From NCBI GenBank assembly GCA_043809245.1, contig JAZDDZ010000049.1, positions 13,864-77,863 of the forward strand: a DNA stretch of 64,000 bases, read 5' to 3'. The stretch comes from Candidatus Iainarchaeum sp. (GTDB taxonomy: Archaea > Iainarchaeota > Iainarchaeia > Iainarchaeales > JAZDDZ01). The position numbers and the translations under genes were made by a program. A model generated the notes under the pieces. That model was not told where the DNA came from, ran no database searches, and saw only the letters and a list, made by a program, of their open reading frames with translations. This document shows, one piece after another, positions 15,951 through 34,229 of the stretch (the stretch's first letter is position 1; each line of letters begins with the position of its first letter).

Positions 15951-17027
15951 TTATCTTAATGTGACTGTTTTGCTTGTTGAAGCCACTGCTTGAATTGCTA
16001 CGCCAGATTTTAAATTAACCTTCAAAGTATACGTTCCGGGCGAGATTTCTGTTTTGTTATCATACCCAATATAAGTTGCCTTGTAAATTCCATCATAACC
16101 TACTGGAATTTCAGATAAAGCATAGCTTTGTTCATCCACATCTCTGCTCAGTACTTGGTCGCCTTCATATATATAAAAATCAAACATAGGATTTTGAAGA
16201 ATGGCTTCTCCGTTATTTTTTATTCCAATCTTTACGTAATCTAAAAAGCATTCATTGTTGTAACATGTCGGGTTATAATCTACTATGCTCAATTCTATCT
16301 GGAATCCTTCTTTTACCAATTCTAAGGCTTTTTCTTCTTTTGGAATATCCATCTCTAAGTAGCTCTGCCTTTCCAAAATATCATATTCGAACTTAGAGTT
16401 GATTTGCTTAATATCCTCTTCAGAAAAACCTTTAAGGCGCTCAAGTTCTTGTTTATCCAAATTTATAATTTGCTGATACAATTCTATAAATTTTTCTTCA
16501 TCATTTTCTACTGCGGTTTTTTCAACCAACGCGTTTCTATTTACATTCCATTCTCTTCTATCGCGCCTATACTTAACATAGGTTTTCTCTAAATTAACAT
16601 CAAAGCTACCTTCTAATTCCGAAACAGCTCTTTCCATCTGCTCAATCTTAGTCAGTATGAAATCATAGTCAATTAAAGCGCTCTCTTTATCGTATTCCGC
16701 AGATTCTGCGTCTAAAAACTTTATAATATCCTTGTACTGCTTGGTTTCCTCCAACTTCTGCTTAGCACAAGTATTTACTTTTTGTCCTCCTGATTCTAAT
16801 TCTTTACAATCAAAAAATTGCGGGCATGCAACATCCAAACAACAATTTTCGGCAATCTCCCCGGGCTCTGCAATTCCATTACCGCAAATAGCGTTCGCGC
16901 TTAGGTCTGATGAAGGCAAACTATTATCGCTGTTAGACAATGCAGCCGGCGAGCCTACATCTTGTGTGCACCCGCTGAGAATCAACAATAAAATAAATGC
17001 CGGAACAACTAATTTCAGGCCAAGCAT
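15951..17027 (-). CDS. Secreted lipoprotein, function unknown
   Basis: Signal peptide with a lipobox-like LLILSGCTQD. Acidic and coiled-coil-rich. Confidence 0.5.
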   Translation of the reverse strand: MLGLKLVVPAFILLLILSGCTQDVGSPAALSNSDNSLPSSDLSANAICGNGIAEPGEIAENCCLDVACPQFFDCKELESGGQKVNTCAKQKLEETKQYKDIIKFLDAESAEYDKESALIDYDFILTKIEQMERAVSELEGSFDVNLEKTYVKYRRDRREWNVNRNALVEKTAVENDEEKFIELYQQIINLDKQELERLKGFSEEDIKQINSKFEYDILERQSYLEMDIPKEEKALELVKEGFQIELSIVDYNPTCYNNECFLDYVKIGIKNNGEAILQNPMFDFYIYEGDQVLSRDVDEQSYALSEIPVGYDGIYKATYIGYDNKTEISPGTYTLKVNLKSGVAIQAVASTSKTVTLR

Positions 17028-17087
17028 AATAGCAAGTTATTGCTACGAAAATCATATAAATATGTTATGAGCGTGTTATGATAGTAT

Positions 17088-17360
17088 TTGAATGGGCCTG
17101 CAGCCTCTATTTTAATGTACGAAGAAATAGCTGGCCTCAAACGGAGCAAGACAAAAATAGACATTCTCAAAAGGCTTGCATCAAAGCCCATGACGCCAAC
17201 GGAGCTATCAAAAGAGCTTAAGCTCCACCAGTCAAGCATCTCACGGAGCATTAAACAGCTTGAACAGCAAAAACTAGTGGAATGCTTAACGCCAAAACAA
17301 TACAACTATAGGCATTATCAGGCAACAGAGAAAGGAAAAAAAATTCTGAAACAAATTTAA
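17088..17360 (+). CDS. Small winged-helix transcriptional regulator (ArsR/MarR-like)
   Basis: KTKIDILKRLASKPMTPTELSKELKLHQSSISRSIKQLEQQKLV is a classic wHTH. Confidence 0.55.
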   Translation: MNGPAASILMYEEIAGLKRSKTKIDILKRLASKPMTPTELSKELKLHQSSISRSIKQLEQQKLVECLTPKQYNYRHYQATEKGKKILKQI

Positions 17361-17364
17361 TTTG

Positions 17365-19008: not shown

Positions 19009-19274
19009 TTCTCGCAGAATTTTGAATTCTGGCTATTTTTTGCTCCGCATGCTCTACAAAATATTGCTTTTTCATTTGGTTGAGTAGCCTGAATTTGTTG
19101 GCTTGGTTTTGAATCAGCTTTAATCATAAACAAGCCAATAACAAATAGAATCGCAAATACTATTGTTGCAATGAGTGAAACGTCTGTGAAAAATTTTATT
19201 AAAGTTAAAACGTTTTTTAAAGAAGCCGAGCTGTCTTTAACCATGGCCATAATTCGCCAATACTGCCGCCCCAT
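18990..19274 (-). CDS. Small membrane protein with a C-terminal zinc ribbon
   Basis: One TM helix, then CRACGAKNSQNSKFCEKCGEKI. Same tail architecture as the neighbouring large protein. Confidence 0.4.
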   Translation of the reverse strand: MGRQYWRIMAMVKDSSASLKNVLTLIKFFTDVSLIATIVFAILFVIGLFMIKADSKPSQQIQATQPNEKAIFCRACGAKNSQNSKFCEKCGEKI

Positions 19275-19504
19275 CCCGCGGCCTCTCCAATCACTGGAAC
19301 CCAGTTAAGGCCTTTAACTGTTTGCAAAAAAGAAGTAGCAGAAGTATACCAATCCGAATGCGATATTGAATAGATTTGCTCATTAGCCTGGTACGCGCTG
19401 TTAATAGTTCCGGAGAGAGGAGTTAGATAAATAAAGAAGGTTAAGAAAATGATTAACATGGCTAAGGAAAAGCCCGCTAAGAACGCCCCACCCACTTTTC
19501 CCAT
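19217..19504 (-). CDS. Small membrane protein
   Basis: Two hydrophobic helices. Weak call; overlaps the previous ORF by about 58 nt. Confidence 0.3.
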   Translation of the reverse strand: MGKVGGAFLAGFSLAMLIIFLTFFIYLTPLSGTINSAYQANEQIYSISHSDWYTSATSFLQTVKGLNWVPVIGEAAGWGGSIGELWPWLKTARLL

Positions 19505-19564
19505 AGTACTATTTTTGGCCTTGAAATGCCTTTAAAATCTATCGTAATGGCAAAATGGCTTTAG

Positions 19565-20224
19565 TTGAAAAAGGCTTTGTTTGAGTACTATTTAATGGAT
19601 AACAACTATCAGAACCGAACGCGGGTCAATGATATTCAAGCTAGAATAAGTCACGAGATATACTTAGAGGTAAGTGAAAAAATTAAAGAAGGAGATATTT
19701 CTAAAGCAAAAGAACTTTTTTTAGAAAATTTTAGACTAATTATCCATGAGATAAGTCAATTTGGCGGTATTAAAGAAAGAAAGCATTTATTTGGAAGAGT
19801 AGCTCAAGGAATTAATTTTTTAAAGGACACGTATTTTTTTGACATTAAATATGGAGAAATTAATGATGCAAAGAAAGAATTATTTACAATATTTAATGAA
19901 CATTTGGTAGTGGTAATTGCGCTAATATTAAAAGATGAGGAAGATTTTGGGGCAATAGAATATATTGACAGAATGATTCACCCATTATTTTATATTGAAA
20001 AGAGAGATGCTCCAGATTATGCGGGCTTTACTGTATCCCGAGTTGATGAAAAATATTTTTTCGATGTTTTCAGATTTCGTTTTAAAAATGCGTCAAAAGA
20101 TTATGACGAACTAAAGTTTGAAATTGAAAAATACAAAAACTGGGTTGAAGAAAAAAACAAAAAGTTTGCTGATTTACTTAAAAATCGTGGTATAAATGCC
20201 GAGTATAAAAAAGCGAAAGAATAA
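19565..20224 (+). CDS. Hypothetical protein
   Basis: ORF only. AT-rich; no motif recognized. Confidence 0.35.
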   Translation: MKKALFEYYLMDNNYQNRTRVNDIQARISHEIYLEVSEKIKEGDISKAKELFLENFRLIIHEISQFGGIKERKHLFGRVAQGINFLKDTYFFDIKYGEINDAKKELFTIFNEHLVVVIALILKDEEDFGAIEYIDRMIHPLFYIEKRDAPDYAGFTVSRVDEKYFFDVFRFRFKNASKDYDELKFEIEKYKNWVEEKNKKFADLLKNRGINAEYKKAKE

Positions 20225-20843
20225 ACAAAGGTATCTAGAGCTAAAAAAGCTTGACGATTATTTAGCCTCTTGGATAGAACAAAAAAATAAAGAATTCAGA
20301 GAGTTCACAGACCAGAACGTAGCGTTGATGCGAGAAGAAAACATTCGCTTAAGAAAAGATGCTGCAGAAGTTTACCAAAAAGCTGAAAAGAAACTTGACG
20401 AACAGCAAATAAGACTAGTAGAAGTATTGGGAATATTTACTGCAATACTTGCTTTTGTTATAACATTTGTCCAAATCTCTGTAAGTTTTTCGGCTATAGA
20501 AGCATTTGGCTTAATTATTGCCATTGGCATCATCTTGATAATATTTATATTTTTGTTAAAGAAAATAATAGAACCTAAAGCGCAAAATGAGAAAATGATT
20601 AGTATCCCGAAAGAAAAAAAATTCGATTGGCCCCGAGAAATAAGGCGCATTTTAAATCCTTTTCTTACAGTATTTATTTCTATATCTATATCGATTTTGG
20701 TTTATTCAGAAGTAATAATAAGAAATGAAATAGATGCTAACTTTTGGATTTTACTTTTTTTCGGTACTTTAGCAATTTTTATTTTAATTAATTCTCCGAT
20801 TTTCTATTTAATATCTTGGCAAAACAAAGGGCTACTCAAATGA
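20196..20843 (+). CDS. Hypothetical membrane protein
   Basis: Coiled-coil N-terminus and three C-terminal TM helices. Confidence 0.35.
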   Translation: MPSIKKRKNKQRYLELKKLDDYLASWIEQKNKEFREFTDQNVALMREENIRLRKDAAEVYQKAEKKLDEQQIRLVEVLGIFTAILAFVITFVQISVSFSAIEAFGLIIAIGIILIIFIFLLKKIIEPKAQNEKMISIPKEKKFDWPREIRRILNPFLTVFISISISILVYSEVIIRNEIDANFWILLFFGTLAIFILINSPIFYLISWQNKGLLK

Positions 20844-20849
20844 ACTGAT

Positions 20850-22001
20850 CTAAGTTGGAGTTTGAGGAGTTTTTTTATTAATGGCTTCATACAATTTGCT
20901 AAACTTTTTTTCTTGCCAGTCATAAAATATTTTTCCGAAAACACGCACCAGAATAGCGTGTAAAATTATACCTATAAAAAAAGCAAGGGCAAAAGCAAAA
21001 ATTAATTGCATAGAAAGTAATATCTGAACCGCCATTGAATTAGCATAAATGCTAGGCAGGTTCTGCACAATGGCGTTTATGGAATACTGTATTAATAAAA
21101 TATAGAATATTACAAGAAACAAAATTGTGGAAATTGCCCACACAATCCAGGAAGTCCAGTGCCTTTGAAAATGAATAAGCGGGACCATTCTTTCTAAAGG
21201 CCAAAATTTTTCATTAGGAATATTTTTGATTATTTTTACTTCTTCAATAGCGTTTAGCTGGTTTTTTAAAGCTGCTTTAATTATCTCCTTGTCATCTTTC
21301 CAATCTGCAAGTATTTTTTTCATAGTTTCAAGATTTATTAGGTTTGGGAAATAGGAAATAAGTCGAATAGTATCTTTCTTACTTAACTTTAGTTTATATA
21401 ATTCATCTATTGCATCCGGGTTTAATTCTTGTTGAGTAAGCAGAGAATCAATTAGCACGGGGCTGTTCCAACTATTTTTAACTAATAGAGATATTGTTTT
21501 AGTTAGCTCTATACCAATAATATTGTAACTATCTATTTCTTGTATTATACTTGTTTGGGCCTCTTTTTTTATTTCCGCAAAAATTTTTTCCTTCCTTAAT
21601 TTCCTAGCTATTGCGCCCCAATTCTCAATTGCTATATCGATGACCGTTAAAACTGCAAGCACTGCAACAATAATAACAAAAATAGTATTCTGTAGGTCTC
21701 CGCTTTTCCAAAGCACCATTAAAAAGGCAATTGCTAAAATACTTTTCCAAGCAGTATCCGAAATTTTCAAAAAACGTGTCAAGACTGATCGTAGTAATTC
21801 AGTAATTGTTTCTAAAAAATCGAAAAATTTTGTGATTGGTCGATTATCCTCGGGTCTTCTGAAAATTCTGCTGCCGATATCAACACTAACGTCAGGCAAC
21901 GTAAATAAGTCATTAGGCATTAATCTTGTAGGTATTTTCTCTTTTCCCATAGCTATATATCGCATAATAATCTTTTTATAGTGCAAAGATAGCTGCTTCA
22001 C
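20850..22001 (-). CDS. Hypothetical polytopic membrane protein
   Basis: Several TM helices at both ends; no motif recognized. Confidence 0.4.
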   Translation of the reverse strand: MKQLSLHYKKIIMRYIAMGKEKIPTRLMPNDLFTLPDVSVDIGSRIFRRPEDNRPITKFFDFLETITELLRSVLTRFLKISDTAWKSILAIAFLMVLWKSGDLQNTIFVIIVAVLAVLTVIDIAIENWGAIARKLRKEKIFAEIKKEAQTSIIQEIDSYNIIGIELTKTISLLVKNSWNSPVLIDSLLTQQELNPDAIDELYKLKLSKKDTIRLISYFPNLINLETMKKILADWKDDKEIIKAALKNQLNAIEEVKIIKNIPNEKFWPLERMVPLIHFQRHWTSWIVWAISTILFLVIFYILLIQYSINAIVQNLPSIYANSMAVQILLSMQLIFAFALAFFIGIILHAILVRVFGKIFYDWQEKKFSKLYEAINKKTPQTPT

Positions 22002-22864
22002 ATCTTCTCAATCAACTCCTTTGCAATCGATTCATACGATTCTGAGTTGAAGACCTTGTTAACCAACTCGAGCTGCTCTTGGTGTGAGAAGAAAATGTAT
22101 TGGTCAGTTGTGTCTTCTTTTTTGTGCCTGGCCAGAACTTTGACTAATTCTTTTTGCTTGCAGAATTGATATAGCCTTGTCAGATAGGTTCGCCTAAAGG
22201 AGTGAGTTGATAGCTTGAATAGCTTCTTTTTGCATGGGTTTTCGTGGCTTGGAGTGAAAGCCTCTGCGTAAATGTTTGTTAGGCCGGCTTTCTGCCTGCA
22301 TTTGCCGAAAAAGTTTCTCAAGTGGTCGACTGAGATTCTTTCTCTTTTCTGGAATGGATTCAACGAAAAGAAAAGAAAGCCATTGGCCTGCTTTATCTCT
22401 TCTTTATAGCGCTCCGCATACATTTGAATGCACTCTAATGCTATTTGAGGCATTGGTTGGTCGGATGGCAGTTCTGCTTTCTCTGTGAGAAGAGAGATTA
22501 CGCCTCTTTCAAAGTCACAGTCTTGCAGCCTTATTTTCACTACTTCTCCGACTCTGAAGCCGCCTGTGAGCATTAAGAACATTGCAAGGCCTTGCTTTGC
22601 TCTTTTAGCGGGAATCGCTGAAAACAGTTTCATTAAGTCAAGGTCAGAGAATACTCTGTAGACGTTTCTGCTTTTAGGCGAAGAACGCTTTTTAATAGAC
22701 GGAAATTTTTCCTTTAACACTTCGCCAGTTATTTTTCGCAGCATTTTCAAATCAGATGCTGCAAGCTGTGTCAGGAATTCGCTCCATTGTTTTTCGAAGC
22801 CAACAATCGACCTTGGCTTCCTTCTGCTAACCGAAAACCGATTGCCTGCTTCCAGACCCGAAAT
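21998..22864 (-). CDS. Tyrosine recombinase/integrase (XerC/D-phage integrase family)
   Basis: The catalytic-domain motifs are LMLTGGFRVGEV (Arg I), HSFRRTYLTRL (His-x-x-Arg) and LARHKKEDTTDQYI (His/Tyr region). The track ORF runs to 22897 but its first 11 codons overlap the tRNA, so the true start is internal. Confidence 0.8.
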   Translation of the reverse strand: MSGLEAGNRFSVSRRKPRSIVGFEKQWSEFLTQLAASDLKMLRKITGEVLKEKFPSIKKRSSPKSRNVYRVFSDLDLMKLFSAIPAKRAKQGLAMFLMLTGGFRVGEVVKIRLQDCDFERGVISLLTEKAELPSDQPMPQIALECIQMYAERYKEEIKQANGFLFFSLNPFQKRERISVDHLRNFFGKCRQKAGLTNIYAEAFTPSHENPCKKKLFKLSTHSFRRTYLTRLYQFCKQKELVKVLARHKKEDTTDQYIFFSHQEQLELVNKVFNSESYESIAKELIEKM

Positions 22865-22936
22865 TGGACCCAGCGGGAATTGAACCCGCGACCTCATCCT
22901 TGCGAAGGATGCGTCCTACCACTAGACTATGGGCCC
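22865..22936 (-). tRNA. tRNA-Ala: tRNA-Ala(CGC)
   Basis: Manual fold: acceptor GGGCCCA/TGGGTCC with a G3:U70 pair, anticodon loop TTCGCAA, T-loop TTCAATT. 72 nt; no encoded CCA. Confidence 0.85.
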
Positions 22937-23000: not shown

Positions 23001-23690
23001 TTATTGCTTATCAAAGTGCAGGTCAAAGGCAAGCATTATTTTTCTTCGGGGATCATAAAAGCAGTTATGGTTCTCCAAGTCAGCAATTCCTAATGCTTCT
23101 AGTTTTTTGCACGCACGCGCCCTTCTTTTATCAAGTGCATCAAACAATCCCTCGTCAGAATATTGTATTTCTTCAACGGTTTTAAAGCTGTAAAACCTTG
23201 ATACTAGGAAAGATTGTTTGCCTGATTTGAAAGCAAATTCGTACTGGATTGGCTCAATGCCTTGTTTTAACAAAATTTTTTCCGCCTTATGCATTGCAGC
23301 TATTTGCTGGGGCGCATAATGCATGGGCCTATCGCCAGGAAAGACAACATTGCCAGGCAATTGAGTAAATTCTTTTACGAATAATCTTTTTCCTCCGCGG
23401 CGAAGAAGAAATCCATTCGTATCACCTATTTCCCGTTTAAATTTCACAGTTGTTTCACCGACAGTAATGGAAGCGCCTTTGCCTTCAACTAAAAGTCTTG
23501 CCCATGCCTGAAGAAAATCCTTAATTACCCCTGGGTTCTGCCTGATAAATTTCCTTGCCCTTTCAGTGTAAGCAAAGCTTCTTCCGCTCTTCTTCCCCTC
23601 AACAAAAGTCAAAGGCAGCAGGCTTCTTGGTTTTCCTGGAATGCGGGGCTTGTTTCCCTTGCCTATAGCCATGAAATGAATTATTGCCAC
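23001..23690 (-). CDS. Hypothetical protein transcribed divergently from the intein-containing ATPase
   Basis: ORF with a basic N-terminus; no motif recognized. The 46-bp shared intergenic region contains a TTAATATAATTG TATA-like element. Confidence 0.4.
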   Translation of the reverse strand: MAIIHFMAIGKGNKPRIPGKPRSLLPLTFVEGKKSGRSFAYTERARKFIRQNPGVIKDFLQAWARLLVEGKGASITVGETTVKFKREIGDTNGFLLRRGGKRLFVKEFTQLPGNVVFPGDRPMHYAPQQIAAMHKAEKILLKQGIEPIQYEFAFKSGKQSFLVSRFYSFKTVEEIQYSDEGLFDALDKRRARACKKLEALGIADLENHNCFYDPRRKIMLAFDLHFDKQ

Positions 23691-23736: not shown

Positions 23737-26700
23737 ATGGCTGAAGAGACCGCGGAAAAAGAGGAAGAGGAAAGGCCTTTCGGGGCAGAGGAACGTGTCA
23801 AGGTTTTGAAGAATTCCTCTGAGAAAGACTTGTTTGAGGAAATGCTCGGCGAAGAAAAAAAAGCAAAGCCAAAAGAGGCAAAAGTAGAAATCACGCAGAA
23901 CAAGGAAGCGGGTTTCATTGCGATAAAAGAGCATAAAAAGCCGCGCAAGAAAAGGGCGGAGAAAAGCGTGTTAAAGGACGCCGAAAAGATTGATGAAAAA
24001 TCTATGGAGGAGGGGGGTCAGGAAGAACCAGTAACTGGGGGGGAAACTAGGTTCCCCCGCGGTTCGGAAGAAGAATCAGGCGGTGATGAATGGGGCGAGC
24101 ACCACGATGCCTTGGCTGAATTGGCTGTTGAGAACGGAACAAGGGAGATTGGCACAAAGGAAAAGGACTGGGATTTATACGAAAAGCCTGAAAGGGAAAA
24201 AATAAGGCAGACTCTGATTGAAAAAGCGAAAAAAGCAGGCGAAGAGGATTCAAGCAGTGGCGGAGGAGCGATTGCATTAAAGTTTTTGGACGATGTGGAA
24301 AAAAACTCAGTTTTCATCGGCAGAAAAAAATCAGTGCACAAAAAATTCGGGTACGAGGGCGCGCTGATGGTTGGCAAGGTCAACGAAGACGATTACAAGG
24401 AATCAAAAGTGCATTTGGATTCACTGAACCCGCACGTGATATTCGTTTGCGGCGCGAGGGGAAGCGGCAAATGCCTTACAGGGGGCACGCTGATAACGCT
24501 TGAATCAGGCGAAGTAATCCCAATAAAAGAACTGGAAGAAAGGAACGAAAAACTGTTTGCATTAAACCATGAACTAAAAATAGGGGCAACTAACAGAACG
24601 GAATTCTTTAAGAGAACCGTTAACCGCACACTTTCTTTAAGATTGAAAAGCGGAAAAGAAATAGAGTTAACGCCCGAACACCCCCTTTTCACAATCAACG
24701 GGTGGCTGCCTGCGGAAGAACTGGGAAAAGGCGACAGGATTGCCACGCCGAGGGTTTTGCCCGCATTCGGAAGCAGGAAAATGAAGGAATGCGACGTAAA
24801 ATTATTGGCTTATCTGTTGGCTGAAGGGCATTTGAGCAACCACTTTGTGCTGTTCAGCAACATGGATGAAAAAATCATCTCCGATTTCATGTTAGGCGTT
24901 AGGGAATTTGATGAGGGATTGAAAATAGAGGGTCACGGAGCGCTAGGCTGTTTTAGGGTTGCACAGAAAAAGAAAAAAGTGGACACAAGCCACATTGTAA
25001 GGAATGAACAAGGGCAGTTCACTGATAAGGGATTCATTGTTGCGCAGAAAAGCTCTTTGATGCAGTGGCTTGAAAGCATAGGAATTTACGGCAAGCTGTC
25101 TGCGGAAAAATTCATCCCAAAAGAAGTAATGGAACTGGAGAAAGCACAGCTGGCTTTGTTCTTGAACAGGCTTTTCAGCTGCGATGGAACAATTCACAGG
25201 GTCAGCAGGACAACTAACTGGAGCATTTCAATCGGGTTCAGTTCCGAGAAAATGACAAGGCAGGTGCAGCATCTGCTGTTAAGGTTTGGGATTCTTTCTA
25301 GGTTCAGGAAAAAACAAAGCAAGTTAAAAGGAAAAATATTCAAAAGCTTTGAAACAGTTTTATACGCTGAAAACGTAATTAAGTACCTTAACGAAATTGG
25401 TTTTTACGGCGAAAAAGAAGAAAGGGCTGCAATTGCCTTGCCTGAAATGAATGCAAAGAAAAGGAACCCGAATTTTGACACGGTTCCAAAAGACGTTTGG
25501 GAAAGGTTTCCGTCAGGCAACTGGAAAACAATCGGGAGAGAGTTAGGCTATGCGCCCCAGTCATTCCACAATACAAAACTTTATGCGCCTTCAAGGGAAA
25601 AATTGCTAAAAATTGCCACAATAGCGCAAAACAAGGGCGCACAAATGCTTGCAGAGGCTGACATTTACTGGGATACAATTGAAGAAATCAAGGAAAACCT
25701 TGAAGAAAAAGAAGTATTCGATATTTCCGTGCCCGAGTTCCATAATTTTGTAGCAAATGATATAATTGTGCACAATTCGTACATCCTTGGAGTGATAGCG
25801 GAGGAAATAGCAAAGCACAATCCGAATATAGGTGCTGTTGTGATTGACCCTGTTGGTGTTTTTTGGAGCATGAAATTTCCGAACAAGGAAGAAAAAGAAC
25901 TCCAGATTTTAAGCGAATGGGGATTGCAGGCAAACGGATTGGATAACTTGAAAGTGTTCATCCCTGAGGGAATGAAAAGCGAAACACCGAAAAACACTTA
26001 TGATGGAACCTTTTCGATTCCGCCTTCCTTGCTGACGCCGGATGACTGGTGCTTAACGTACGGAATTGAAAGGTTTTCGCCGACTGGATTGCTGCTTGAC
26101 AAAGTGATTAAAAAAGTCGGCCACGGGCATAAGACCCTTGACGGAAAATATGTGAAAGGAAAAGACAAGGCATTCGGCTTGAATGACTTGATTAATTGCC
26201 TTGAATTTGACGCGGAACTGAATTCACGCGAGAAAGGATACAAGCAGGACTCAATCCGTGCCTTGACCACGAGGTTTGAGGCAGCAAAGACCTGGGGAAT
26301 TTTTTCTGACAGGGGAACTCCTTTGGCGGAACTTTCAAGGGAAGGGCAGCTGACAGTAATTGACACTAGCTTTTTGGAGGACAATGTGACTGCATTGGTG
26401 ATTGGAATTTTGGCGAGAAGGATTCTTGCTGCGAGAAAAATCACGACAAGAAAGGAAGCCGCAAGCCAGTTTAAGTCAGAGGGGGGCATGAAGGAAATTT
26501 TGGAGTTGGAGATTCCGCCGACATGGCTTTTCATTGACGAAGCCCATACGCTTATGCCGAGCGGGAACCAGAAGACTGCGGCAACCGATTCACTGGTTGA
26601 ATATGTGAAGCAGGGAAGAAGGCCGGGCTGTTCCTTGGTTGCGGCAACACAGCAGCCGAGCGCAATTGACACGAAAGTTTTAAGCCAGCTGGACATTTTG

Positions 26701-27978
26701 ATTGCGCATAAATTGATTTTTGACGACGACATAAAAGCGGTGTTCAAGCGCGCGCCGACAATTGTGCCTTCAAGGTACAAGAAAGGCAATTTCATCAAAA
26801 CGCTTCCGGTTGGAACTGCATTGGTTGCAGACAGGAGTGAGGAAACAAGCCGCGCATTCATTATGAAAATCAGGCCGAGGATGAGCCAGCATGAGGGAAG
26901 GGAAGCCGAGGCAACAGACAGGGACATCACCTTGAAGCCCGAGCAAGTGGAAAAATTCGCTTCCGAGGCGATTCTGAGGCAGCTGGAAAGCGATGGAACA
27001 GTTGAGATAAGGGAAATTGATAGAGTTGTTGCCACAATGAGCGCAAAATACAAGGCAAAGGCGCAGCTGTCAAAGGTATTGGATTTATTGGAGAAGAAAG
27101 GCGCAATAGTGGAGAAAGACATTGTGAGGCTGCCTGGAGTGCAGGCGGAAAAAGAAGAAGAGGAAAAAGAGGAAATGAAAAGGGAAGCCGGGGAAGAGGC
27201 ACCTGCAGAGAAAGAGGCACCGCAGAAAGTCGCTGAAGCCGTTGAGATTCTCGCGTTCCAGAACCGATTGGGGGAGAAAGAGGCAAAGACAGCTGTTGAC
27301 AGGTTCAGGAAAAAGAAGGTTTTGGGATTCCTTGGCTCGGAAGAGGAAGTGAAGGCGTTAAGGCTGAAGCATGCAACTGTTTGGAAGGTTTACTTTGAGG
27401 AATTCGGGCCAAAAAACGAGTTCTACCCAAGGGAGTGCTACATAAATTCTTTGGATGGGGAAATGCTGCACTTTGATGGAAAGAAGTTCGTTGAATCAAA
27501 GGGCTTCAGCTTGTTTTATGATTTGGGCGAAGAGCAGTTAAAGGTTGCAAGGGAGTTAAGGGGCAACGTGAAGTACTCCTTGCCGCAGATTGTGGAGAAA
27601 ACAGGCGTTGAGGAGTCAAAAGTGAAGAGGTCATTGGATAACCTCATTTCATTGAAGCTGGCTGGAACAGGCAAGGACCAGAAATCTGGAAAAAATTATT
27701 ATTTCCTTAAAGCGGAAATGGATTTGCCTCCGCGCTCAGACCATGAAATGGTTTCATCGCCGAAAAAAGTTCCATTGGTGAGAAGCGAGGCGGTTGAAAA
27801 GGAAAGGGAGAATATTTCAAGGGAAAAACTGCCTGAAGTGCTGAGAAGGCTTTGGCCAAATGCGCTTGTGAAAAAGGTTTCCGAGATTCACAGGCCTTTC
27901 TGGGAGGCAACGCTTGCTGAAAAAGGAAAGGAAAGGAAGATATGGGTTGACGCGGTCAGCGGGGAAAGGATAAAGTGA
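23737..27978 (+). CDS. FtsK/HerA-superfamily P-loop ATPase (HerA/VirB4-like) with a K/E-rich N-terminal extension, an intein in the Walker A loop, and C-terminal wHTH-like domains
   Basis: Extein Walker A VIFVCGARGSGK|...|SYILGV. Walker B WLFIDEAHTL. A HerA-type AATQQPSAIDTKVLSQLDILIAHKL motif is present. Confidence 0.75.
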   Translation: MAEETAEKEEEERPFGAEERVKVLKNSSEKDLFEEMLGEEKKAKPKEAKVEITQNKEAGFIAIKEHKKPRKKRAEKSVLKDAEKIDEKSMEEGGQEEPVTGGETRFPRGSEEESGGDEWGEHHDALAELAVENGTREIGTKEKDWDLYEKPEREKIRQTLIEKAKKAGEEDSSSGGGAIALKFLDDVEKNSVFIGRKKSVHKKFGYEGALMVGKVNEDDYKESKVHLDSLNPHVIFVCGARGSGKCLTGGTLITLESGEVIPIKELEERNEKLFALNHELKIGATNRTEFFKRTVNRTLSLRLKSGKEIELTPEHPLFTINGWLPAEELGKGDRIATPRVLPAFGSRKMKECDVKLLAYLLAEGHLSNHFVLFSNMDEKIISDFMLGVREFDEGLKIEGHGALGCFRVAQKKKKVDTSHIVRNEQGQFTDKGFIVAQKSSLMQWLESIGIYGKLSAEKFIPKEVMELEKAQLALFLNRLFSCDGTIHRVSRTTNWSISIGFSSEKMTRQVQHLLLRFGILSRFRKKQSKLKGKIFKSFETVLYAENVIKYLNEIGFYGEKEERAAIALPEMNAKKRNPNFDTVPKDVWERFPSGNWKTIGRELGYAPQSFHNTKLYAPSREKLLKIATIAQNKGAQMLAEADIYWDTIEEIKENLEEKEVFDISVPEFHNFVANDIIVHNSYILGVIAEEIAKHNPNIGAVVIDPVGVFWSMKFPNKEEKELQILSEWGLQANGLDNLKVFIPEGMKSETPKNTYDGTFSIPPSLLTPDDWCLTYGIERFSPTGLLLDKVIKKVGHGHKTLDGKYVKGKDKAFGLNDLINCLEFDAELNSREKGYKQDSIRALTTRFEAAKTWGIFSDRGTPLAELSREGQLTVIDTSFLEDNVTALVIGILARRILAARKITTRKEAASQFKSEGGMKEILELEIPPTWLFIDEAHTLMPSGNQKTAATDSLVEYVKQGRRPGCSLVAATQQPSAIDTKVLSQLDILIAHKLIFDDDIKAVFKRAPTIVPSRYKKGNFIKTLPVGTALVADRSEETSRAFIMKIRPRMSQHEGREAEATDRDITLKPEQVEKFASEAILRQLESDGTVEIREIDRVVATMSAKYKAKAQLSKVLDLLEKKGAIVEKDIVRLPGVQAEKEEEEKEEMKREAGEEAPAEKEAPQKVAEAVEILAFQNRLGEKEAKTAVDRFRKKKVLGFLGSEEEVKALRLKHATVWKVYFEEFGPKNEFYPRECYINSLDGEMLHFDGKKFVESKGFSLFYDLGEEQLKVARELRGNVKYSLPQIVEKTGVEESKVKRSLDNLISLKLAGTGKDQKSGKNYYFLKAEMDLPPRSDHEMVSSPKKVPLVRSEAVEKERENISREKLPEVLRRLWPNALVKKVSEIHRPFWEATLAEKGKERKIWVDAVSGERIK
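24472..25776 (+). other. Intein (435 aa) with a LAGLIDADG homing-endonuclease domain, inserted in the P-loop of the ATPase
   Basis: N-terminal splice junction CLTGGTLITL (Cys1). The two LAGLIDADG motifs are LLAYLLAEGHLS and LALFLNRLFSCDGTI. The C-terminal junction is IIVHN|S (His-Asn then Ser+1). Confidence 0.7.
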
Positions 27979-27985: not shown

Positions 27986-28267
27986 TTACCTTTTGTAAAT
28001 CTCGTCGTGATGGTCAAAGTCAATGAATAAAATGAATTTTTTTTCCCTGTCGAATTTGAATGTTAAAACAAAGCTTTTGTCTATGTGGACTCTTTTCCTG
28101 TCGCTTAAGCCGTGCTTAAGGTTCTTGAAATGCCCAATTGTAAATTCATCCGATTCTATAACGCTTTCAATTTTTTTCATTAAAATTTCATAGCGTCTTC
28201 GGTCAGCCCTGAAAAGCTTTTTCAGTTTTACCTTTAACTCTTCTGAAAAATCGTGGGCTAATGGCAT
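27986..28267 (-). CDS. RelE/ParE-family toxin
   Basis: KNLKHGLSDRKRVHIDKSFVLTFKFD...IDFDHHDEIY matches the RelE/StbE pattern. Confidence 0.65.
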   Translation of the reverse strand: MPLAHDFSEELKVKLKKLFRADRRRYEILMKKIESVIESDEFTIGHFKNLKHGLSDRKRVHIDKSFVLTFKFDREKKFILFIDFDHHDEIYKR

Positions 28268-28522
28268 TCAGTCGCCTTCAATTTCTTTCCTTAAGTCTTT
28301 AATGCTTGTGTGCCTATAGCCGTATTTTTTGAAGTGTTCTTGCTCTATTTTGAGGATTTTCCTGATATAACTTTCCTTTACTTCGGGCTCAACCTCGTTT
28401 TCGCCGTAATCCCCAATGAATTTGTTCAAAGCCTCGCTTTTGTCCTTTAGGTCATACTTTGCCTTTACAACAGTCAAAACCCTATTAGAATATTTGTTCA
28501 AGCTAACCCTTGCATCAACCAT
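28268..28522 (-). CDS. Putative antitoxin of the RelE-like toxin
   Basis: Small acidic ORF whose stop abuts the toxin start (ATG 1 nt after). N-terminus VSLNKYSNRVLTVVKAKYDL. Confidence 0.5.
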   Translation of the reverse strand: MVDARVSLNKYSNRVLTVVKAKYDLKDKSEALNKFIGDYGENEVEPEVKESYIRKILKIEQEHFKKYGYRHTSIKDLRKEIEGD

Positions 28523-29700: not shown

Positions 29701-30351
29701 TCATCGGTTCTTTTTCACGAATTCGCCCGGAAGCACGCAGGAATTGTTTGAAAGAATTACGCCGCAGTTAATGGATGCGTTTATTCCGATTTTCACGCTG
29801 TTCCCAATGCATGCCCCTAATTTTCGCCTGCCTGAACTGGTTTTGACTCCGCGCAATTCAACTTTCACGCTTGAATTGTCGTGGCGAAGGTTAGCGATTT
29901 TTGTTCCAGCACCAAGGTTAACGTTTTCCCCGAGGATTGAGTCTCCGACGTAAGAAAAATGCGGCACATTTGAGTCACTGAGAATAATTGAATTCTTTAC
30001 CTCGGAGTTCGCAATATGGGAACCGCAGGCAACAAGCGTTGTGCCTCTCAGGTAAGCATTCGGGCCAATTGTGCAGTCCGCGCCGATGTAATTGTTTCCC
30101 TCCAAGTAAGAGCCTGATTTGATTACAGAGTTTTTGCCGAGGAAAAGCTTTCCCTTGATTACAACATTTTTTTCAATTAAGCCAAAGCGCGCGTCAGGAA
30201 TCTTTTTTCCCAAAGCATCAAGGCGGTTAATGAAATACCAGAACCTGAAGCGTTTTCCAGAGGCAAGCATTTCCTTTAATTCGCAAAAAAAATCAATGAA
30301 AGGCTGGATCTGCTTTCTCGCCTTTTCCTTCCTCGCCTTTAATGAAGCCAT
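29701..30351 (-). CDS. Left-handed beta-helix (hexapeptide-repeat) acyltransferase, GlmU C-terminal-domain-like
   Basis: Repeated [LIV]G.... hexapeptides: IGADCTIGPNAYLRG, LGENVNLGAGTKI, IGNSVKIGINASI. Confidence 0.6.
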   Translation of the reverse strand: MASLKARKEKARKQIQPFIDFFCELKEMLASGKRFRFWYFINRLDALGKKIPDARFGLIEKNVVIKGKLFLGKNSVIKSGSYLEGNNYIGADCTIGPNAYLRGTTLVACGSHIANSEVKNSIILSDSNVPHFSYVGDSILGENVNLGAGTKIANLRHDNSSVKVELRGVKTSSGRRKLGACIGNSVKIGINASINCGVILSNNSCVLPGEFVKKNR

Positions 30352-30359
30352 GAAAACAC

Positions 30360-31712
30360 CTAAGCGCCAATCTCCTTTTTTATTTCATTTAATATATCGT
30401 GCATTAAGGCATTAATTTGCTTTTTATTTTTGCCTTCAACCATCACGCGGGCAAGGTTTTCCGTGCCAGAATACCGCACAAGAAGCCTGCCTTTTCCCTT
30501 AAGTTTTTTCTCTGCTTTGGATATTTTTGCCTTAACCGAATGCATTTTTTCGAAAGGAATCTTTTCGCGTACCTTGACATTGCCCAATAGCTGAGGCACT
30601 GGAGAAAAAACATTGCTTAAATCGCTTAATTTTTTACCGCTTTTCTTGAGTATCCGCAAAAGCTGCAAAGCGGAAATAATGCCATCGCCTGCTGTTGAAA
30701 ACTCGGAAAAAATAATGTGGCCTGACTGCTCTCCGCCCAAAACCGCGCCGGATTTCCTCATCTCCTGAATCACTGGAATATCGCCGACAGCGGTGCGTAG
30801 AAGCCTGATTCCTTTTTTCTTTAACGCCAATTCAAAGCCGTAATTGCTCATGACTGTTGCGACAACCTTTTTTCCCTTCAGCTTTCCCTTTGAAAGCAAA
30901 TCAAAGGCGAATAATGCCATTAGCCTGTCGCCGTCCAAAACATTTCCTTTCTCATCGCAGACAATTAAGCGGTCTGCGTCGCCGTCCAGGGCAATCCCGG
31001 CATCAGCGTGAAATTTTTTCACCGCGGCGCTTATGACCTCTGGGTGAAGCGCGCCGGAATTTTTGTTGATGTTCAGCCCATCAGGGGAAAGGTTCAATGC
31101 AATTACTTCCGCGCCGAGTTCCTTGAAAACCCATTTCGCTATATCATAGGCGGCTCCGTTTGCGCAGTCAACAACAAGCTTTAATCCCTCAAGGCCCTGG
31201 TTTTCAATGCTTGATTTCACGAATTCAATGTACCTTCCTTTTGCATCGTCAATGCGGAAAGCCTTGCCTATCTGCGCTCCGTTTGCGGGAATTGCATCAG
31301 ACTCAAGGAGCGCCTCAATTTCCCTCTCAGTCCTGTCATCCAGCTTGAAGCCATCAGAATCAAAAATTTTTATGCCGTTATCCTCCGCAGGATTATGCGA
31401 GGCGCTGATTACAATGCCAGCGCATGCGTCAAAGGAACGCGTCAAGTGAGCGATTGCGGGAGTGGGCATTGGCCCCAAAAGCAATACATCGGCGCCAATT
31501 GAAACAAGGCCAGAGGTCAGGGCGGTTTCAAACATGTAGCCGCTCAATCGCGTGTCCTTTCCGATAACGATTTTCGCGTTCTTTTTTTTCTCGCGCTTCA
31601 AAACAATTGCAATGGCTTTGCCGAGCTTCAATGCAACCTCAGGAGTCATAGGGTAAACGTTCGCCCTGCCGCGAATTCCGTCGGTTCCGAAAAATTTTTT
31701 CATAAAAATCAT
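30360..31712 (-). CDS. glmM: Phosphoglucosamine mutase / phosphohexomutase
   Basis: FGTDGIRG N-terminus and the active-site loop SASHNPAEDNG. Confidence 0.8.
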   Translation of the reverse strand: MIFMKKFFGTDGIRGRANVYPMTPEVALKLGKAIAIVLKREKKKNAKIVIGKDTRLSGYMFETALTSGLVSIGADVLLLGPMPTPAIAHLTRSFDACAGIVISASHNPAEDNGIKIFDSDGFKLDDRTEREIEALLESDAIPANGAQIGKAFRIDDAKGRYIEFVKSSIENQGLEGLKLVVDCANGAAYDIAKWVFKELGAEVIALNLSPDGLNINKNSGALHPEVISAAVKKFHADAGIALDGDADRLIVCDEKGNVLDGDRLMALFAFDLLSKGKLKGKKVVATVMSNYGFELALKKKGIRLLRTAVGDIPVIQEMRKSGAVLGGEQSGHIIFSEFSTAGDGIISALQLLRILKKSGKKLSDLSNVFSPVPQLLGNVKVREKIPFEKMHSVKAKISKAEKKLKGKGRLLVRYSGTENLARVMVEGKNKKQINALMHDILNEIKKEIGA

Positions 31713-32455
31713 ATTTTCTGTAAAATCATTATACCATCATAAAGTATATGTTTTGTTTTAAGTATAGTTTTTGGAACCAAAATCCTGAAACCCGCTTTTC
31801 TCAGCATAGCCTCATCAAAGTTTAGGTGCGCAGTACTTGATGAAAGAACCAAAAAACCCCCCTTGTTTAGTTTACCATGAAGTGTTTTAGCCGTGAAAAG
31901 ATTAAGATCAGGATAGCCCCTTGCAGAGGTAATGCAGTCTTTAGAATAAATAACATCAAAGCGGCCTTTAAAACTTTTGTTTAATCCATCTGCATAACCC
32001 CACTCAGCCCTTAATCCTTTAACTTGTTTTTGCTGACTTGGGCTCTCGTCAATGCCAAACATTTTTGCCCCCTGCTCTTTTAATAGTTCCATGAATTCAG
32101 TTGAACCAAAACCAATCTCACAGATTTTTTTACCTTTTAGATTGCCTTTGTAAATGCTTCTAATAAAAGCCATTATAGGGCCATAACCGCGGAGGCTATA
32201 CGGCTCTCCAGAGTTCAGGGTTTTTGATTCCGGCATCATCTCGTAGAATTTTTTCGCCCAATAATCAATTTTTTCTCGGGCCAGTCCCAAACGGTTCATC
32301 TCCCGCTCATATCTGACAACCTGCTTATCAGTTAAAACAAGTTGTCCATTTCTGGCTTTTGCGCCTCCACGCATTAAAGCCCGCGTTGAAAGTTTTGCTT
32401 CTTTCGGCACTGAAAAATGAAATGCTTTTTTCTCAAAACTGGTCCTGGCAGGCAT
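31709..32455 (-). CDS. Class I SAM-dependent methyltransferase
   Basis: Motif I ICEIGFGS. Motif post-I FGIDES. Confidence 0.5.
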   Translation of the reverse strand: MPARTSFEKKAFHFSVPKEAKLSTRALMRGGAKARNGQLVLTDKQVVRYEREMNRLGLAREKIDYWAKKFYEMMPESKTLNSGEPYSLRGYGPIMAFIRSIYKGNLKGKKICEIGFGSTEFMELLKEQGAKMFGIDESPSQQKQVKGLRAEWGYADGLNKSFKGRFDVIYSKDCITSARGYPDLNLFTAKTLHGKLNKGGFLVLSSSTAHLNFDEAMLRKAGFRILVPKTILKTKHILYDGIMILQKI

Positions 32456-32462
32456 TAAAAAA

Positions 32463-34229
32463 TCACTTCACCGTAACGCTTTTAGCGAGATTGCGCGGCT
32501 TGTCTGGATTGCATTTGCGTTCAACCGCAAGGTAATAGGATAGGAGCTGTATGGGAATGATGTCAACAATCGGGCTGGCGTCAAGAAATTCCTTTACCTT
32601 GATGAATTCGTGGAAAACCTCGTTTGGCTTGGAGTCAATTCCGATGATGAATGCGCCGCGGCTTTTGAGTTCGGTTGCGTTGCTTAGAATGAGTTCGCGA
32701 GTCCTGTCAGTTGAGATAACAATGCACGGCGTTCCCTTTTCAATTAAAGCGATTGTGCCGTGCTTTAATTCCGCGCCCGCAAAGCCTTCGGCGTGAATGT
32801 AGCAGATTTCCTTGACCTTCAATGCCCCTTCAAGCGCTGTGGGAAAAGCGAGGTCTCGGCCGATCAAAAACATGTGACCCGCGCGCTTTATTTTTTTCGC
32901 AAGTCGCCTGATGCCAGGCTCGGTTGACCTGATAATCGATGGAACTGCAGCCGATGCAGATGAAACCAGTTTTTTTCCCTGCTGTTTTTTTCCGGCAACA
33001 GCGTAAGCCAAAAGCAAAAGAATTGCAAGCTGTGCGGTGTAGCTTTTCGTTGAGACAACCCCTATTTCAGGCCCTGAGTTCATCAAAAGTGTTTTTTCGC
33101 TTAAGCGCATCAGGCTGGAGCCCATCACGTTTACAATGGAAATCACTTTGCAGCGCTTTTTTTTCGCGAACTTGACAGCGTCAAGCAAGTCAGCGGTTTC
33201 ACCGCTCTGCGAAACCGCTACAACAAGTGTTTTTGGCGTCAAAAAATGCTCGTAGTTGCGGAATTCCGAGGCAATTACAACATTAACGTGTTTTTTCGCA
33301 ACCTTGGAGAAAACATATGAAGCGGAAACACAGGAATGATAGCTTGTTCCGCAGCCCACAAAGAAAACGCCGAAAGCCGAGCGGATGCTTTTTGCTACAT
33401 CGTCAACCAAGCCAGTGGGCTGCTCCAATGCCTCTTTTATGGTGAAAGCCTGCTCGTTGATTTCCTTAAGCGTGAAATGCTTGTATTTTCCCTTTTTTGC
33501 CTGCTCAACAGACCACTTGATGCTTTGGATTTTTTTGCTTACTTTTTTGTTTTTTTTGAGGCCAATAATCTTTGTTCCTTCCGCTCCAACGATTGCCATT
33601 TCATTGTCATCCAAAAAAATTGTTTTATGGGTGAATTCAAGGAATGCAGTGACGTCGGATGCGAGGAAAAATTCGCTGTTTCCGATGCCTAAAACAAGCG
33701 GGCTGCCGTTCCTGGCACCAATTAAGCCGGAAAAGTTTTTTTGCATTGCGACAACCGCGTAATAGCCCTTCATTTTTTTCAGGGAAAGCTTTACTGCTTC
33801 GGGAAAATTTTTTCCGCGCGATTTCATGAAGAACTGAATCATGTTTGGAATGACTTCAGTATCTGTTTCGCTGCGGAATCGGTAGCCTTTTTTCTTCAGG
33901 AATTTTTTGAGTTCCAAATAATTTTCAACTATCCCGTTGTGGACAACTGCAATGCTTTTGTCGTTTGAGAGGTGGGGATGTGCGTTTTTTTCCGAGACCC
34001 CGCCGTGCGTGGCCCAGCGCGTGTGAGCCAAGGCAAGCGAGGAAGGGGAAAGCCTTCCCTTAAAGTTTTCAATTGCACCCACTTTTTTTAAAACCGTGAA
34101 CTGAGCACCGGTTTTTTTTTGGAGGGCAAAGCCAAAGGAGTCATAACCCCTGTATTCAAGGCGCCTTAATCCTTTCAATGCGATTTCCGAGGCGTTTTTT
34201 CCGCCGAAATAGCCGATTATTCCGCACAT
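32463..34229 (-). CDS. glmS: Glutamine--fructose-6-phosphate aminotransferase (isomerizing)
   Basis: MCGIIGY N-terminal nucleophile (class II GATase). Two SIS domains. The C-terminus ends in KSVTV. Confidence 0.9.
   Translation of the reverse strand: MCGIIGYFGGKNASEIALKGLRRLEYRGYDSFGFALQKKTGAQFTVLKKVGAIENFKGRLSPSSLALAHTRWATHGGVSEKNAHPHLSNDKSIAVVHNGIVENYLELKKFLKKKGYRFRSETDTEVIPNMIQFFMKSRGKNFPEAVKLSLKKMKGYYAVVAMQKNFSGLIGARNGSPLVLGIGNSEFFLASDVTAFLEFTHKTIFLDDNEMAIVGAEGTKIIGLKKNKKVSKKIQSIKWSVEQAKKGKYKHFTLKEINEQAFTIKEALEQPTGLVDDVAKSIRSAFGVFFVGCGTSYHSCVSASYVFSKVAKKHVNVVIASEFRNYEHFLTPKTLVVAVSQSGETADLLDAVKFAKKKRCKVISIVNVMGSSLMRLSEKTLLMNSGPEIGVVSTKSYTAQLAILLLLAYAVAGKKQQGKKLVSSASAAVPSIIRSTEPGIRRLAKKIKRAGHMFLIGRDLAFPTALEGALKVKEICYIHAEGFAGAELKHGTIALIEKGTPCIVISTDRTRELILSNATELKSRGAFIIGIDSKPNEVFHEFIKVKEFLDASPIVDIIPIQLLSYYLAVERKCNPDKPRNLAKSVTVK

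Follow-up and report, generated by a model that had tools for sequence, protein, structure and literature searches.

Within the window, the whole 64,000-nucleotide stretch of a Candidatus Iainarchaeum contig (JAZDDZ010000049.1) that we analysed, one forward-strand open reading frame encodes an ATPase precursor interrupted by an intein (Table 1). Its neighbours in the window are a divergently transcribed ORFan and a RelE-like toxin-antitoxin pair. An integrase and a tRNA also lie near the gene; the tRNA has the ATPase gene on its 5' side and the integrase on its 3' side. The earlier note had recognized no NurA-like nuclease partner, and this held for the divergent neighbour: the ORF has no family match in Pfam, NCBIfam, PADLOC or PHROGs, and its sole match among 5.8 billion proteins is itself ('hypothetical protein V1494_06930, Candidatus Diapherotrites archaeon'). 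The genes found upstream at homologous loci bear no relation to it. With no profile match and no counterpart upstream of homologues, the ORF was rejected as a NurA-like partner.

Table 1. Features of the ATPase-intein locus, in window coordinates.
Feature	Position	Strand	Basis or remark
Divergent neighbour, 229-aa ORFan, outside the ATPase/intein system	23001..23690	-	No family match
Whole precursor ORF, 1413 aa	23737..27978	+	Mature spliced protein predicted to be 978 aa
N-terminal acidic/Lys-rich extension, aa 1-180, probably disordered	23737..24276	+	Composition
'ERV' motif, ahead of DLFEEML	23788..23799	+	
Conserved short linear motif DLFEEML	23827..23847	+	Pattern D-hydrophobic-F-x-[DE]-hydrophobic-hydrophobic/G
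N-extein part of ATPase core: small beta-rich segment, strand beta1, then GARGSGK	24277..24471	+	
First seven Walker A residues, GARGSGK	24451..24471	+	
Intein, 435 aa, protein aa 246-680	24472..25776	+	Pfam, NCBIfam, alignment to DnaB mini-inteins
Intein block B, T67-x-x-H70	24670..24681	+	
LAGLIDADG homing-endonuclease domain nested in HINT fold	24787..25626	+	LAGLIDADG_3
LAGLIDADG motif 1, LLAYLLAEGH, catalytic E118	24802..24831	+	
LAGLIDADG motif 2, FLNRLFSCDG, catalytic D238	25159..25188	+	
C-extein part of ATPase core, begins with Ser+1, the Walker A Ser	25777..26904	+	
Walker B, WLFIDEAH	26524..26547	+	
Conserved QGRRPG and ATQQPS motifs, C-extein core	26611..26661	+	
First winged-helix-like domain, aa 1068-1131	26938..27129	+	
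Alpha + long beta-hairpin module 1, aa 1169-1254	27241..27498	+	AF2 model
Second winged-helix domain, aa 1259-1324	27511..27708	+	MarR/TrmB/Lrs14-like
Alpha + beta-hairpin module 2, aa 1341-1405, ends in conserved ...R..W.DA.SG... tail	27757..27951	+	AF2 model

The host is a HerA-clade ATPase

The spliced sequence matches 120 homologues over its full length at 50-60% identity. As the earlier note had supposed, the host is HerA-like: the spliced protein exceeds the Pfam cut-offs for both DUF87 (55.6 bits, cut-off 23.2) and HerA_C (32.6 bits, cut-off 22), and the RecA-like core matched by these profiles contains both Walker A and Walker B. Structurally, the ATPase core resembles HerA more than it does other clades. 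The FtsK/SpoIIIE combination of an FtsK-type alpha/beta motor, an N-terminal membrane anchor and a gamma wHTH was not found in the host. In the predicted model a beta-rich segment of ~45 residues precedes the core, and no Pfam HAS-barrel match was obtained at E<=0.01. This P-loop ATPase of the HerA clade is lineage-specific, and the archaeon that encodes it belongs to Diapherotrites/Iainarchaeum (DPANN).

A canonical intein separates the Walker A Lys and Ser

The intein splits Walker A after its Lys and before its Ser, reading GARGSGK/C...HN/SY (slashes mark the splice junctions). It scores 4e-27 with Pfam Intein_splicing and aligns to the Ssp/Npu DnaB mini-inteins at 1e-17. Block A begins at Cys1 (CLTGGTLITL; NCBIfam TIGR01445 intein_Nterm, 47 bits, cut-off 24.5), block B comprises T67-P-E-H70 and aligns to the DnaB mini-intein, and blocks F (with D417) and G (with H434-N435) read VFDISVPEFHNFVANDIIVHN (NCBIfam TIGR01443 intein_Cterm, 26.4, cut-off 15.6). 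Cys1, T67, H70, D417, H434 and N435 are invariant across 10 intein alleles, and the +1 extein nucleophile, Ser681, is the Walker A Ser itself. The extein also carries a conserved Cys at position -8 (VCGARGSGK/C).

Two comparisons had been set beforehand as tests of the proposal that a 435-aa segment, running from a Cys-initiated CLTGGTLITL block to HN and followed by Ser+1, lies exactly in Walker A, so that its removal yields GARGSGK/SYILGV. The splice residues aligned to intein blocks A, B, F and G throughout, and the extein runs continuously across the junction in 116 of the 120 closest homologues, which lack an intein and carry G[AS]RG[SAT]GKSY there. The proposal thus stands in every part, and the insert is a canonical class-1 intein between the invariant Walker A Lys and Ser.

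From these conserved residues we infer that the precursor undergoes protein splicing. By the standard intein mechanism, Cys1 would make an N-S acyl shift after translation, Ser+1, otherwise the Mg2+-coordinating Walker A Ser, would attack, and Asn435 would cyclise with help from His434 and the block B residues Thr67 and His70. This would free the 435-aa intein and ligate the exteins, giving a protein of 978 aa in which the GARGSGKS loop is whole. Splicing would be obligatory for ATPase activity, because in the unspliced precursor the nucleotide-binding site cannot be functional.

Could the intein instead have decayed into a remnant that no longer splices, making the gene here effectively a pseudogene? 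Nothing direct speaks for this; the intein does have Gly at position 5, where relatives have Asp (CLTGG versus CLTGD), but that position is not catalytic. The Mtu RecA intein starts CLAEG. Against decay, no stop interrupts the 1413 codons of the reading frame, the splicing residues from Cys1 to Ser+1 are all present and the exteins are fully conserved. Decay is exceedingly improbable, and an intact HerA-clade ATPase precursor with a canonical class-1 LAGLIDADG intein between the Walker A Lys and Ser is very probably the best explanation of the locus overall.

The endonuclease is conserved and the intein is patchily distributed

The nested endonuclease domain matches Pfam LAGLIDADG_3 (3.9e-15, 56.3 bits, cut-off 22.5). 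Both LAGLIDADG motifs claimed in the earlier note were recovered, and their catalytic residues, E118 and D238, are invariant among intein alleles, as is K213. Conservation across this domain is 60.6%, much like that of the two HINT halves (61.0% and 66.2%). Judging from these conserved residues, the intein probably has endonuclease activity once released. Its targets would be intein-free alleles, which it would cleave in the highly conserved stretch encoding the P-loop (intein-free consensus GGtGCaaGaGGaTCaGGAAAA before and TCcTAtGTtcTgGGaGTt after the insertion point) before copying itself in.

A related intein occupies the same site in 10 of 77 species-representative genomes; the other 67 loci, ~87% of orthologues, are intein-free. 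Carriers are scattered over the host tree, requiring at least 10 gains or losses on a crude neighbour-joining tree. Two of the same-site relatives are mini-inteins, and a shorter, paralogous DPANN ATPase family also has a related intein at this site. Homing would explain the patchy distribution, the degenerate mini-intein relatives and the same-site presence in the paralogous family. We saw no signal of recent horizontal transfer in the form of inteins more alike than their exteins, because intein identity between alleles (mean 61%) lies below ATPase identity (72%) and is correlated with it (r = 0.57). Patchiness could stem partly from repeated loss instead of repeated invasion. This insertion point is well known as a hot spot for inteins, and the present one, which recurs in related genomes, is nothing out of the ordinary.

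The position of the insertion makes activity strictly dependent on splicing, which raises the idea, compatible with a selfish element, that the intein is kept as a post-translational switch gating the ATPase, for example through redox control at Cys1. The conserved extein Cys at -8 fits this idea, and conditional splicing has been documented for P-loop and other DnaB inteins (PMC6195587). On the other side, the great majority of orthologues manage without an intein, the conserved endonuclease argues for ongoing selfish mobility and the mini-inteins point to decay. We regard a switch as improbable.

Family-specific appendages flank the ATPase core

The K/E-rich N-terminal extension reported in the earlier note is borne out by composition (E 23%, K 14% over aa 1-180). 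It varies from 112 to 313 aa among homologues and has no Pfam match. A DLFEEML-type motif within it recurs in 108 of 121 family members, where shuffled N-termini give an expectation of 2.8.

At the other end of the protein, the two wHTH-like domains noted earlier were both located, each in company with an alpha + beta-hairpin module. The first such module is tentatively PepSY-like, a weak label because just two homologues have precomputed PF03413 matches. As a whole, the C-terminal module is confined to the host family: a representative-library search of 1.84 billion proteins returned 71 representatives, essentially all the same family or gene fragments, and no clear stand-alone copy of the module.

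Genomic context and possible functions of the mature ATPase

The host gene occurs in 233 species-representative genomes, mostly Iainarchaeum/Diapherotrites, in a syntenic chromosomal context beside glmU/glmM/glmS on contigs of up to 831 kb. The nearby integrase and tRNA could mark a provirus, plasmid or conjugative element, with the ATPase serving in packaging or conjugation. However, with the integrase 3' and the ATPase gene 5' of the tRNA, any such element extends away from the gene. The conserved synteny across so many genomes also speaks against a mobile origin, as does an extein GC of 0.47, equal to that of the surrounding chromosome. To delimit the integrase element, we searched the window for an attR, a repeat of the tRNA-Ala 3' end, and found none. 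We consider a mobile origin extremely unlikely.

A role in anti-phage defence, as in HerA-Sir2, HerA-DUF4297 or MADS mad8-type systems, is suggested by PADLOC. A 60%-identical intein-free homologue (P0001) matched mad8 (3.5e-21) along with several HerA models (1e-16 to 1e-7), and the window C-extein scored 9.7e-15 and 1.8e-15 with the same models. These matches are nevertheless restricted to the generic ATPase core, no Sir2, DUF4297 nuclease or MADS methyltransferase set adjoins the gene in any locus examined, and near-universal single-copy presence with stable synteny is atypical of defence genes. Defence is thus very unlikely.

The host might instead be the organism's canonical HerA, acting in HerA-NurA-Mre11-Rad50 end resection with NurA encoded elsewhere. 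All NCBIfam HerA equivalog models score only ~28-35 bits against cut-offs of 800-970 (NF040937, 34.9 versus 800; NF040819, 27.7 versus 970), and in the window, as in five homologous loci, no NurA, Mre11 or Rad50 gene adjoins the ATPase. The Sulfolobus solfataricus HerA (PDB 4d2i) differs from the host on these same points, in the disordered N-terminal extension and the family-confined ~370-aa C-terminal module with two wHTH domains that the host adds, and in the host's missing HAS-barrel match. All of these weigh against the canonical assignment, which we judge unlikely.

Guessing from architecture, we tentatively propose that the mature host may be a hexameric dsDNA translocase, targeted to DNA by its two wHTH domains, tethered to a partner through an N-terminal D-ϕ-F-x-E-ϕ motif on a disordered linker, and acting alone and not in a nuclease operon; our confidence in this is low. 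The resemblance to FtsK is an architectural analogy only: a long, low-complexity linker joins an N-terminal anchoring element to a motor of the FtsK-HerA superfamily, and C-terminal wHTH domains that could read DNA come after the motor. It is a long shot that the 978-aa protein is a DPANN-specific FtsK analogue, a soluble hexameric dsDNA pump whose two winged helices read DNA, whose D-ϕ-F-x-E-ϕ motif on a long acidic linker recruits it to the division or replication machinery, and whose P-loop intein makes activation obligatory and possibly condition-dependent. If true, it would offer a handle on chromosome segregation or resolution in reduced-genome archaea without FtsK.

Significance and comparison with known systems

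For intein biology, the HerA-clade ATPases of DPANN archaea are one more P-loop intein host family. The data set holds a full homing cycle, with empty sites, full-length inteins with conserved endonucleases and two independent mini-inteins, and the same intein site is filled in two paralogous ATPase families. These results are unsurprising to a specialist and do not by themselves open a long-standing question. The more useful point for archaea is the host, a stand-alone, syntenic motor of ~1000 aa with a HerA-like core and family-specific appendages predicted to serve DNA binding and tethering. A literature search on HerA/DUF87/DPANN inteins and on DPANN HerA/FtsK proteins returned nothing specific.

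P-loop inteins are textbook material. The Sce VMA1 intein sits inside a GAFGCGKT loop, and the inteins of Ssp and Mtu DnaB occupy the H4/SIEQDAD region, outside the P-loop. A survey by Novikova et al. 2016 (PMC4760082) covers further P-loop inteins, in DnaB (site b), MCM (site a) and RFC-S (site a). The DnaB, MCM, RFC-S and VMA1 cases share with the present one a Walker A insertion in an oligomeric nucleic-acid or ion-pumping ATPase, a +1 nucleophile that is a conserved P-loop residue, and a LAGLIDADG endonuclease nested in HINT. The present host differs in being HerA-clade and DPANN-confined, and does not appear among the hosts that the survey names in its main text. The closest solved or curated HINT relatives are the Ssp/Npu DnaB mini-inteins (PDB 1mi8, 6frg, 4o1r; 1e-17) and NCBIfam PRK07773, a bacterial DnaB intein (249 bits). 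They have in common with our intein a CL/IxGD(S/T)LI start, TxxH and an end of the form ...HNFVANDIIVHN, but are bacterial and just 27-35% identical over full inteins.

The short-form DPANN HerA-like ATPases (for example P0225, a 651-aa precursor of 437 aa when spliced) share a homologous core with the host (32% identity, E 2e-65), a related intein (44-56% identity) at the identical GKRGSGK/C...HN/SY site, and a stand-alone gene in a housekeeping context. In contrast to the host, they have neither the K/E-rich N-terminal extension nor any of the C-terminal wHTH module, and besides Diapherotrites they are found in MAGs of the Woese-, Nano- and Pacearchaeota type.

Results

The gene for the HerA-like ATPase is a single uninterrupted frame of 1413 aa in a six-frame ORF list. 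A complete intein with its catalytic set intact splits the Walker A loop after Lys245 and before Ser681; it is a 435-aa segment running from CLTGGTLITL to IVHN and flanked by VIFVCGARGSGK before and SYILGVIAEE after. Pfam Intein_splicing covers the whole segment (4.2e-27, 95 bits; cut-off 35.8), LAGLIDADG_3 is nested within that match (3.9e-15, 56 bits; cut-off 22.5), and the NCBIfam domain models intein_Nterm and intein_Cterm both exceed their cut-offs. In silico removal of the 435 residues improved the DUF87 match from 8.8e-9 (profile positions 37–220) to a near-complete 1e-14 (positions 3–220), and the HerA_C match likewise improved. Intein and extein profile scores are both far above chance. 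ORF, Pfam and NCBIfam thus agree with the earlier note, which had placed an intein with a Cys start, an HN end and Ser+1 in the Walker A loop.

Features of the window discussed in the text
Feature	Position	Strand	Remarks
Probable integrated mobile element	9000–22936		3' side of tRNA-Ala(CGC)
516-aa ORF	10398–11948	+	terminase RNaseH-like domain
866-aa fusion	12393–14993	-	Mrr_cat + ResIII/Helicase_C + HNH_repeat
Tyrosine integrase	21998–22897	-	start of ORF overlaps tRNA
tRNA-Ala(CGC)	22865–22936	-	
ORFan, 229 aa	23001–23690	-	upstream neighbour of ATPase gene
HerA-like ATPase ORF	23737–27978	+	
N-terminal short linear motif	23788–23847		aa 18–37; ERV ... D-phi-F-x-[DE]-phi-phi/G
Intein	24472–25776	+	residues 246–680
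RelE-like toxin + DUF2683 protein	27986–28267 and 28268–28522	- and -	phrog_1213, 2.7e-7 for RelE-like
glmU-like/glmM/glmS cluster	29701–34229		
IS66-family transposase	41229–42569	-	
1063-aa protein	60765–63956	-	

The splice blocks align to known inteins. Block A provides Cys1, block B T67-P-E-H70, block F VFDISVPEFHNF with D417, and block G IIVHN with H434 and N435, followed by Ser+1. Both LAGLIDADG motifs that had been claimed are present, as LLAYLLAEGH (E118) and FLNRLFSCDG (D238), and the endonuclease region also carries a conserved Lys213. All these residues are invariant in ten full-length intein alleles, in which 127/435 positions are invariant overall. Between alleles, conservation of the endonuclease region is 60.6% versus 61.0% and 66.2% for the HINT halves, which argues that the endonuclease is still under selection. 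The best curated model is PRK07773, an intein-containing DnaB (249 bits), and among solved structures the splicing domain is closest to the Ssp and Npu DnaB mini-inteins (1e-17). Intein GC (0.42) is slightly lower than that of the exteins (0.47).

By the established class-1 mechanism, Cys1 would undergo an N-S acyl shift, Ser+1 would effect trans-esterification, Asn435 would cyclise, and an O-N shift would regenerate GARGSGKS. Since Ser+1 would double as the Mg2+-binding Walker A hydroxyl, neither ATP binding nor hydrolysis should be possible before splicing. The free intein could cut intein-free alleles within the conserved stretch that codes for the P-loop, and repair would then copy the intein into the cut allele.

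With the spliced sequence as query, a search of 5.8 billion proteins gave at least 758 relatives. The top 120 of these, mostly from 'Candidatus Diapherotrites' MAGs, are 814–1400 aa long and 49–60% identical over 91–100% of the query. The exteins align across the junction uninterrupted in 116 of the 120, reading G[AS]RGSGKSY in 113 and G[AS]RG[AT]GKSY in three; the junction of one intein-free homologue, P0001, is VVFVCGARGSGKSYVLGV. The predicted spliced product equals the protein normally encoded in related genomes. The other four (P0058, P0072, P0098 and P0114) have their insert at precisely this site, starting with Cys and ending in HN before SY, and that of P0114 is a 162-aa mini-intein. 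In a genome scan of one assembly per GTDB species, 233 loci encode the host protein. Eighty were fetched and the junction was readable in 77, empty in 67 and intein-bearing in 10: seven inteins of 435–437 aa with both LAGLIDADG motifs, one 174-aa mini-intein, and two ending prematurely at a contig edge. Four loci (L011, L050, L055 and L076) come from assemblies that bear the labels Peregrinibacteria, Falkowbacteria, Chloroflexi or Micrarchaeota; mis-binning or mislabelling of the contigs is the probable cause, not true occurrence outside Iainarchaeia.

In a neighbour-joining tree built from the first 375 C-extein residues (78 sequences, 11 carriers), intein presence takes at least 10 state changes, and carriers usually have intein-free nearest relatives (for example, loci L035 and L055, distance 0.05). 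Identity to the window is 59–71% for intein alleles, 67–74% for the corresponding ATPase cores and 34–41% for the C-terminal modules. Intein and core identities correlate (r = 0.57), so this comparison makes no very recent transfer visible.

An intein-only search found the next relatives, 44–56% identical, in shorter proteins of Diapherotrites, Woese-, Nano- and Pacearchaeota MAGs. These carriers (P0121–P0225; locus L086, 2449–4404) are a paralogous short-form HerA-like ATPase of ~437 aa when mature, without the N- and C-terminal appendages of the window protein. Their site is homologous, with GKRGSGK before a full-length or mini-intein (C...HN) and SY after it, at the same Walker A position. 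Spliced P0225 (437 aa) matches the long-form core along its whole length (32% identity, 2e-65); its gene has housekeeping surroundings and no nuclease partner there. Remoter relatives, at 27–35% identity, are bacterial DnaB inteins. Taken together, these sequences show the standard homing cycle, in which inteins invade, persist, undergo decay of the endonuclease and are lost, at one P-loop site in two related DPANN ATPase families.

Compared with known motors, the host protein scored highest against Sulfolobus HerA (4d2i; 32.2, 350 residues aligned, 20% identity), followed by the DptH/DndH C-domain (27.6), VirB4 (26.0), bacterial and defence HerAs (19.0–24.5), TrwB (19.8) and FtsK (18.0). The sequence match to PDB HerAs is weak (3.6e-6) and limited to the part from Walker B to the C-terminus, and every NCBIfam HerA equivalog model gives ~30 bits where the cut-offs are 800–970. 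These values indicate a protein predicted to work like a HerA-clade ring ATPase that is not an orthologue of canonical HerA. Of the HerA/FtsK-like motor proposed earlier, the HerA clade stands and FtsK does not.

In PADLOC, P0001, the closest intein-free homologue (60% identical to the window extein), has its best match in mad8 from the MADS defence system (3.5e-21, positions 14–254 of a 314-position profile), more strongly than every HerA model; for the window C-extein, mad8 (9.7e-15) is narrowly second to the best HerA model (1.8e-15). These matches suggest that mad8 belongs to the same sub-clade of HerA-like ATPases as the host family.

Both appendages described in the earlier note were recovered. 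In residues 1–180, the K/E-rich extension, Glu makes up 23% and Lys 14%, and no domain was matched. They contain DLFEEML (aa 31–37), whose pattern, D-hydrophobic-F-x-[DE]-hydrophobic-hydrophobic/G, occurs in 108/121 family members versus 2.8 expected from shuffles. Located at the far end of a long acidic/Lys-rich linker that varies in length, the ERV/D-phi-F motif looks like a docking peptide for some partner. The well-modelled C-terminal 368 aa (pLDDT 89.6) comprise, in order, a wHTH, an acidic linker, a helix and long beta-hairpin module, a second wHTH, and a helix and beta-hairpin module. Both wHTHs are thus present in the predicted structure; by sequence the second is sub-threshold (TrmB 1.2e-3, Sta1 2.8e-4), and a precomputed TrmB annotation exists for several homologues. 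The hairpin modules may be given a weak 'PepSY-like' label, its sole basis being PF03413 matches in two homologues. Only the host family has the whole module: a search of 1.84 billion proteins gave 71 representatives, most of them C-terminal in 800–1500-aa proteins or on fragments. Speculatively, and with considerable doubt, the mature host could be a hexameric dsDNA translocase guided by its wHTHs and tethered by the N-terminal peptide.

The ATPase gene stands alone, with a different upstream neighbour in each locus examined. In the window that neighbour is an ORFan, which among 5.8 billion proteins matches only an identical record, 'hypothetical protein V1494_06930 [Candidatus Diapherotrites archaeon]'. 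With no family match in four HMM libraries either, its candidacy as a NurA-like nuclease is unsupported, in keeping with the earlier failure to recognize such a partner. On the downstream side, loci L004 and L005 and the window share a syntenic, convergent glmU-like/glmM(/glmS) cluster, as does L001 in part. This cluster directly follows the ATPase gene in L004 and L005; in the window it is set apart from the gene by the RelE-like/DUF2683 genes, likely a toxin-antitoxin pair, together with several small ORFs. Contigs bearing the host gene reach 831 kb, and one locus lies in the complete 1.24-Mb AR10 genome.

The ATPase gene might instead have come from a mobile element or defence island, given the tyrosine integrase nearby, whose N-terminal MRSRVQFPLGP is translated tRNA sequence. 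The probable integrated element also includes the 516-aa ORF and the 866-aa fusion, and its GC is low (0.31–0.37) over ~12–22 kb; attR, a second copy of the tRNA 3' end, was not found within the window. The integrase lies on the 3' side of tRNA-Ala, so any element it marks runs towards lower coordinates and not towards the ATPase gene, which makes such an origin unlikely.

Elsewhere, the window encodes an IS66-family transposase (DDE_Tnp_IS66 7.8e-39, plus a zf-IS66 domain). The 1063-aa protein combines galactose-binding-like, fn3 and polysaccharide lyase 14 domains and is presumably a large secreted carbohydrate-active protein, unusual in a small-genome DPANN archaeon.

Discussion

The observation is confirmed and its reading as a P-loop intein is supported, with three refinements: the motor belongs to the HerA clade and not to FtsK, this is not the only such case, and inteins are expected at such a position. 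We found no paper on this HerA-like host family or its intein, and public databases list the proteins by generic names, for example 'helicase HerA-like domain-containing protein'. The host family is the part that could repay more work; the intein itself is another case of a recognised P-loop type. Yeast VMA1, the first intein ever discovered, likewise lies inside a P-loop.

One survey documents the P-loop as an intein hot spot, citing DnaB site b, MCM site a, RFC-S site a and 'many other ATPases' (PMC4760082). It includes VirB4 and VirB11 inteins, and HerA is not among the hosts named in its main text. Like the DnaB, MCM and RFC-S inteins described there, the window intein sits in the P-loop.
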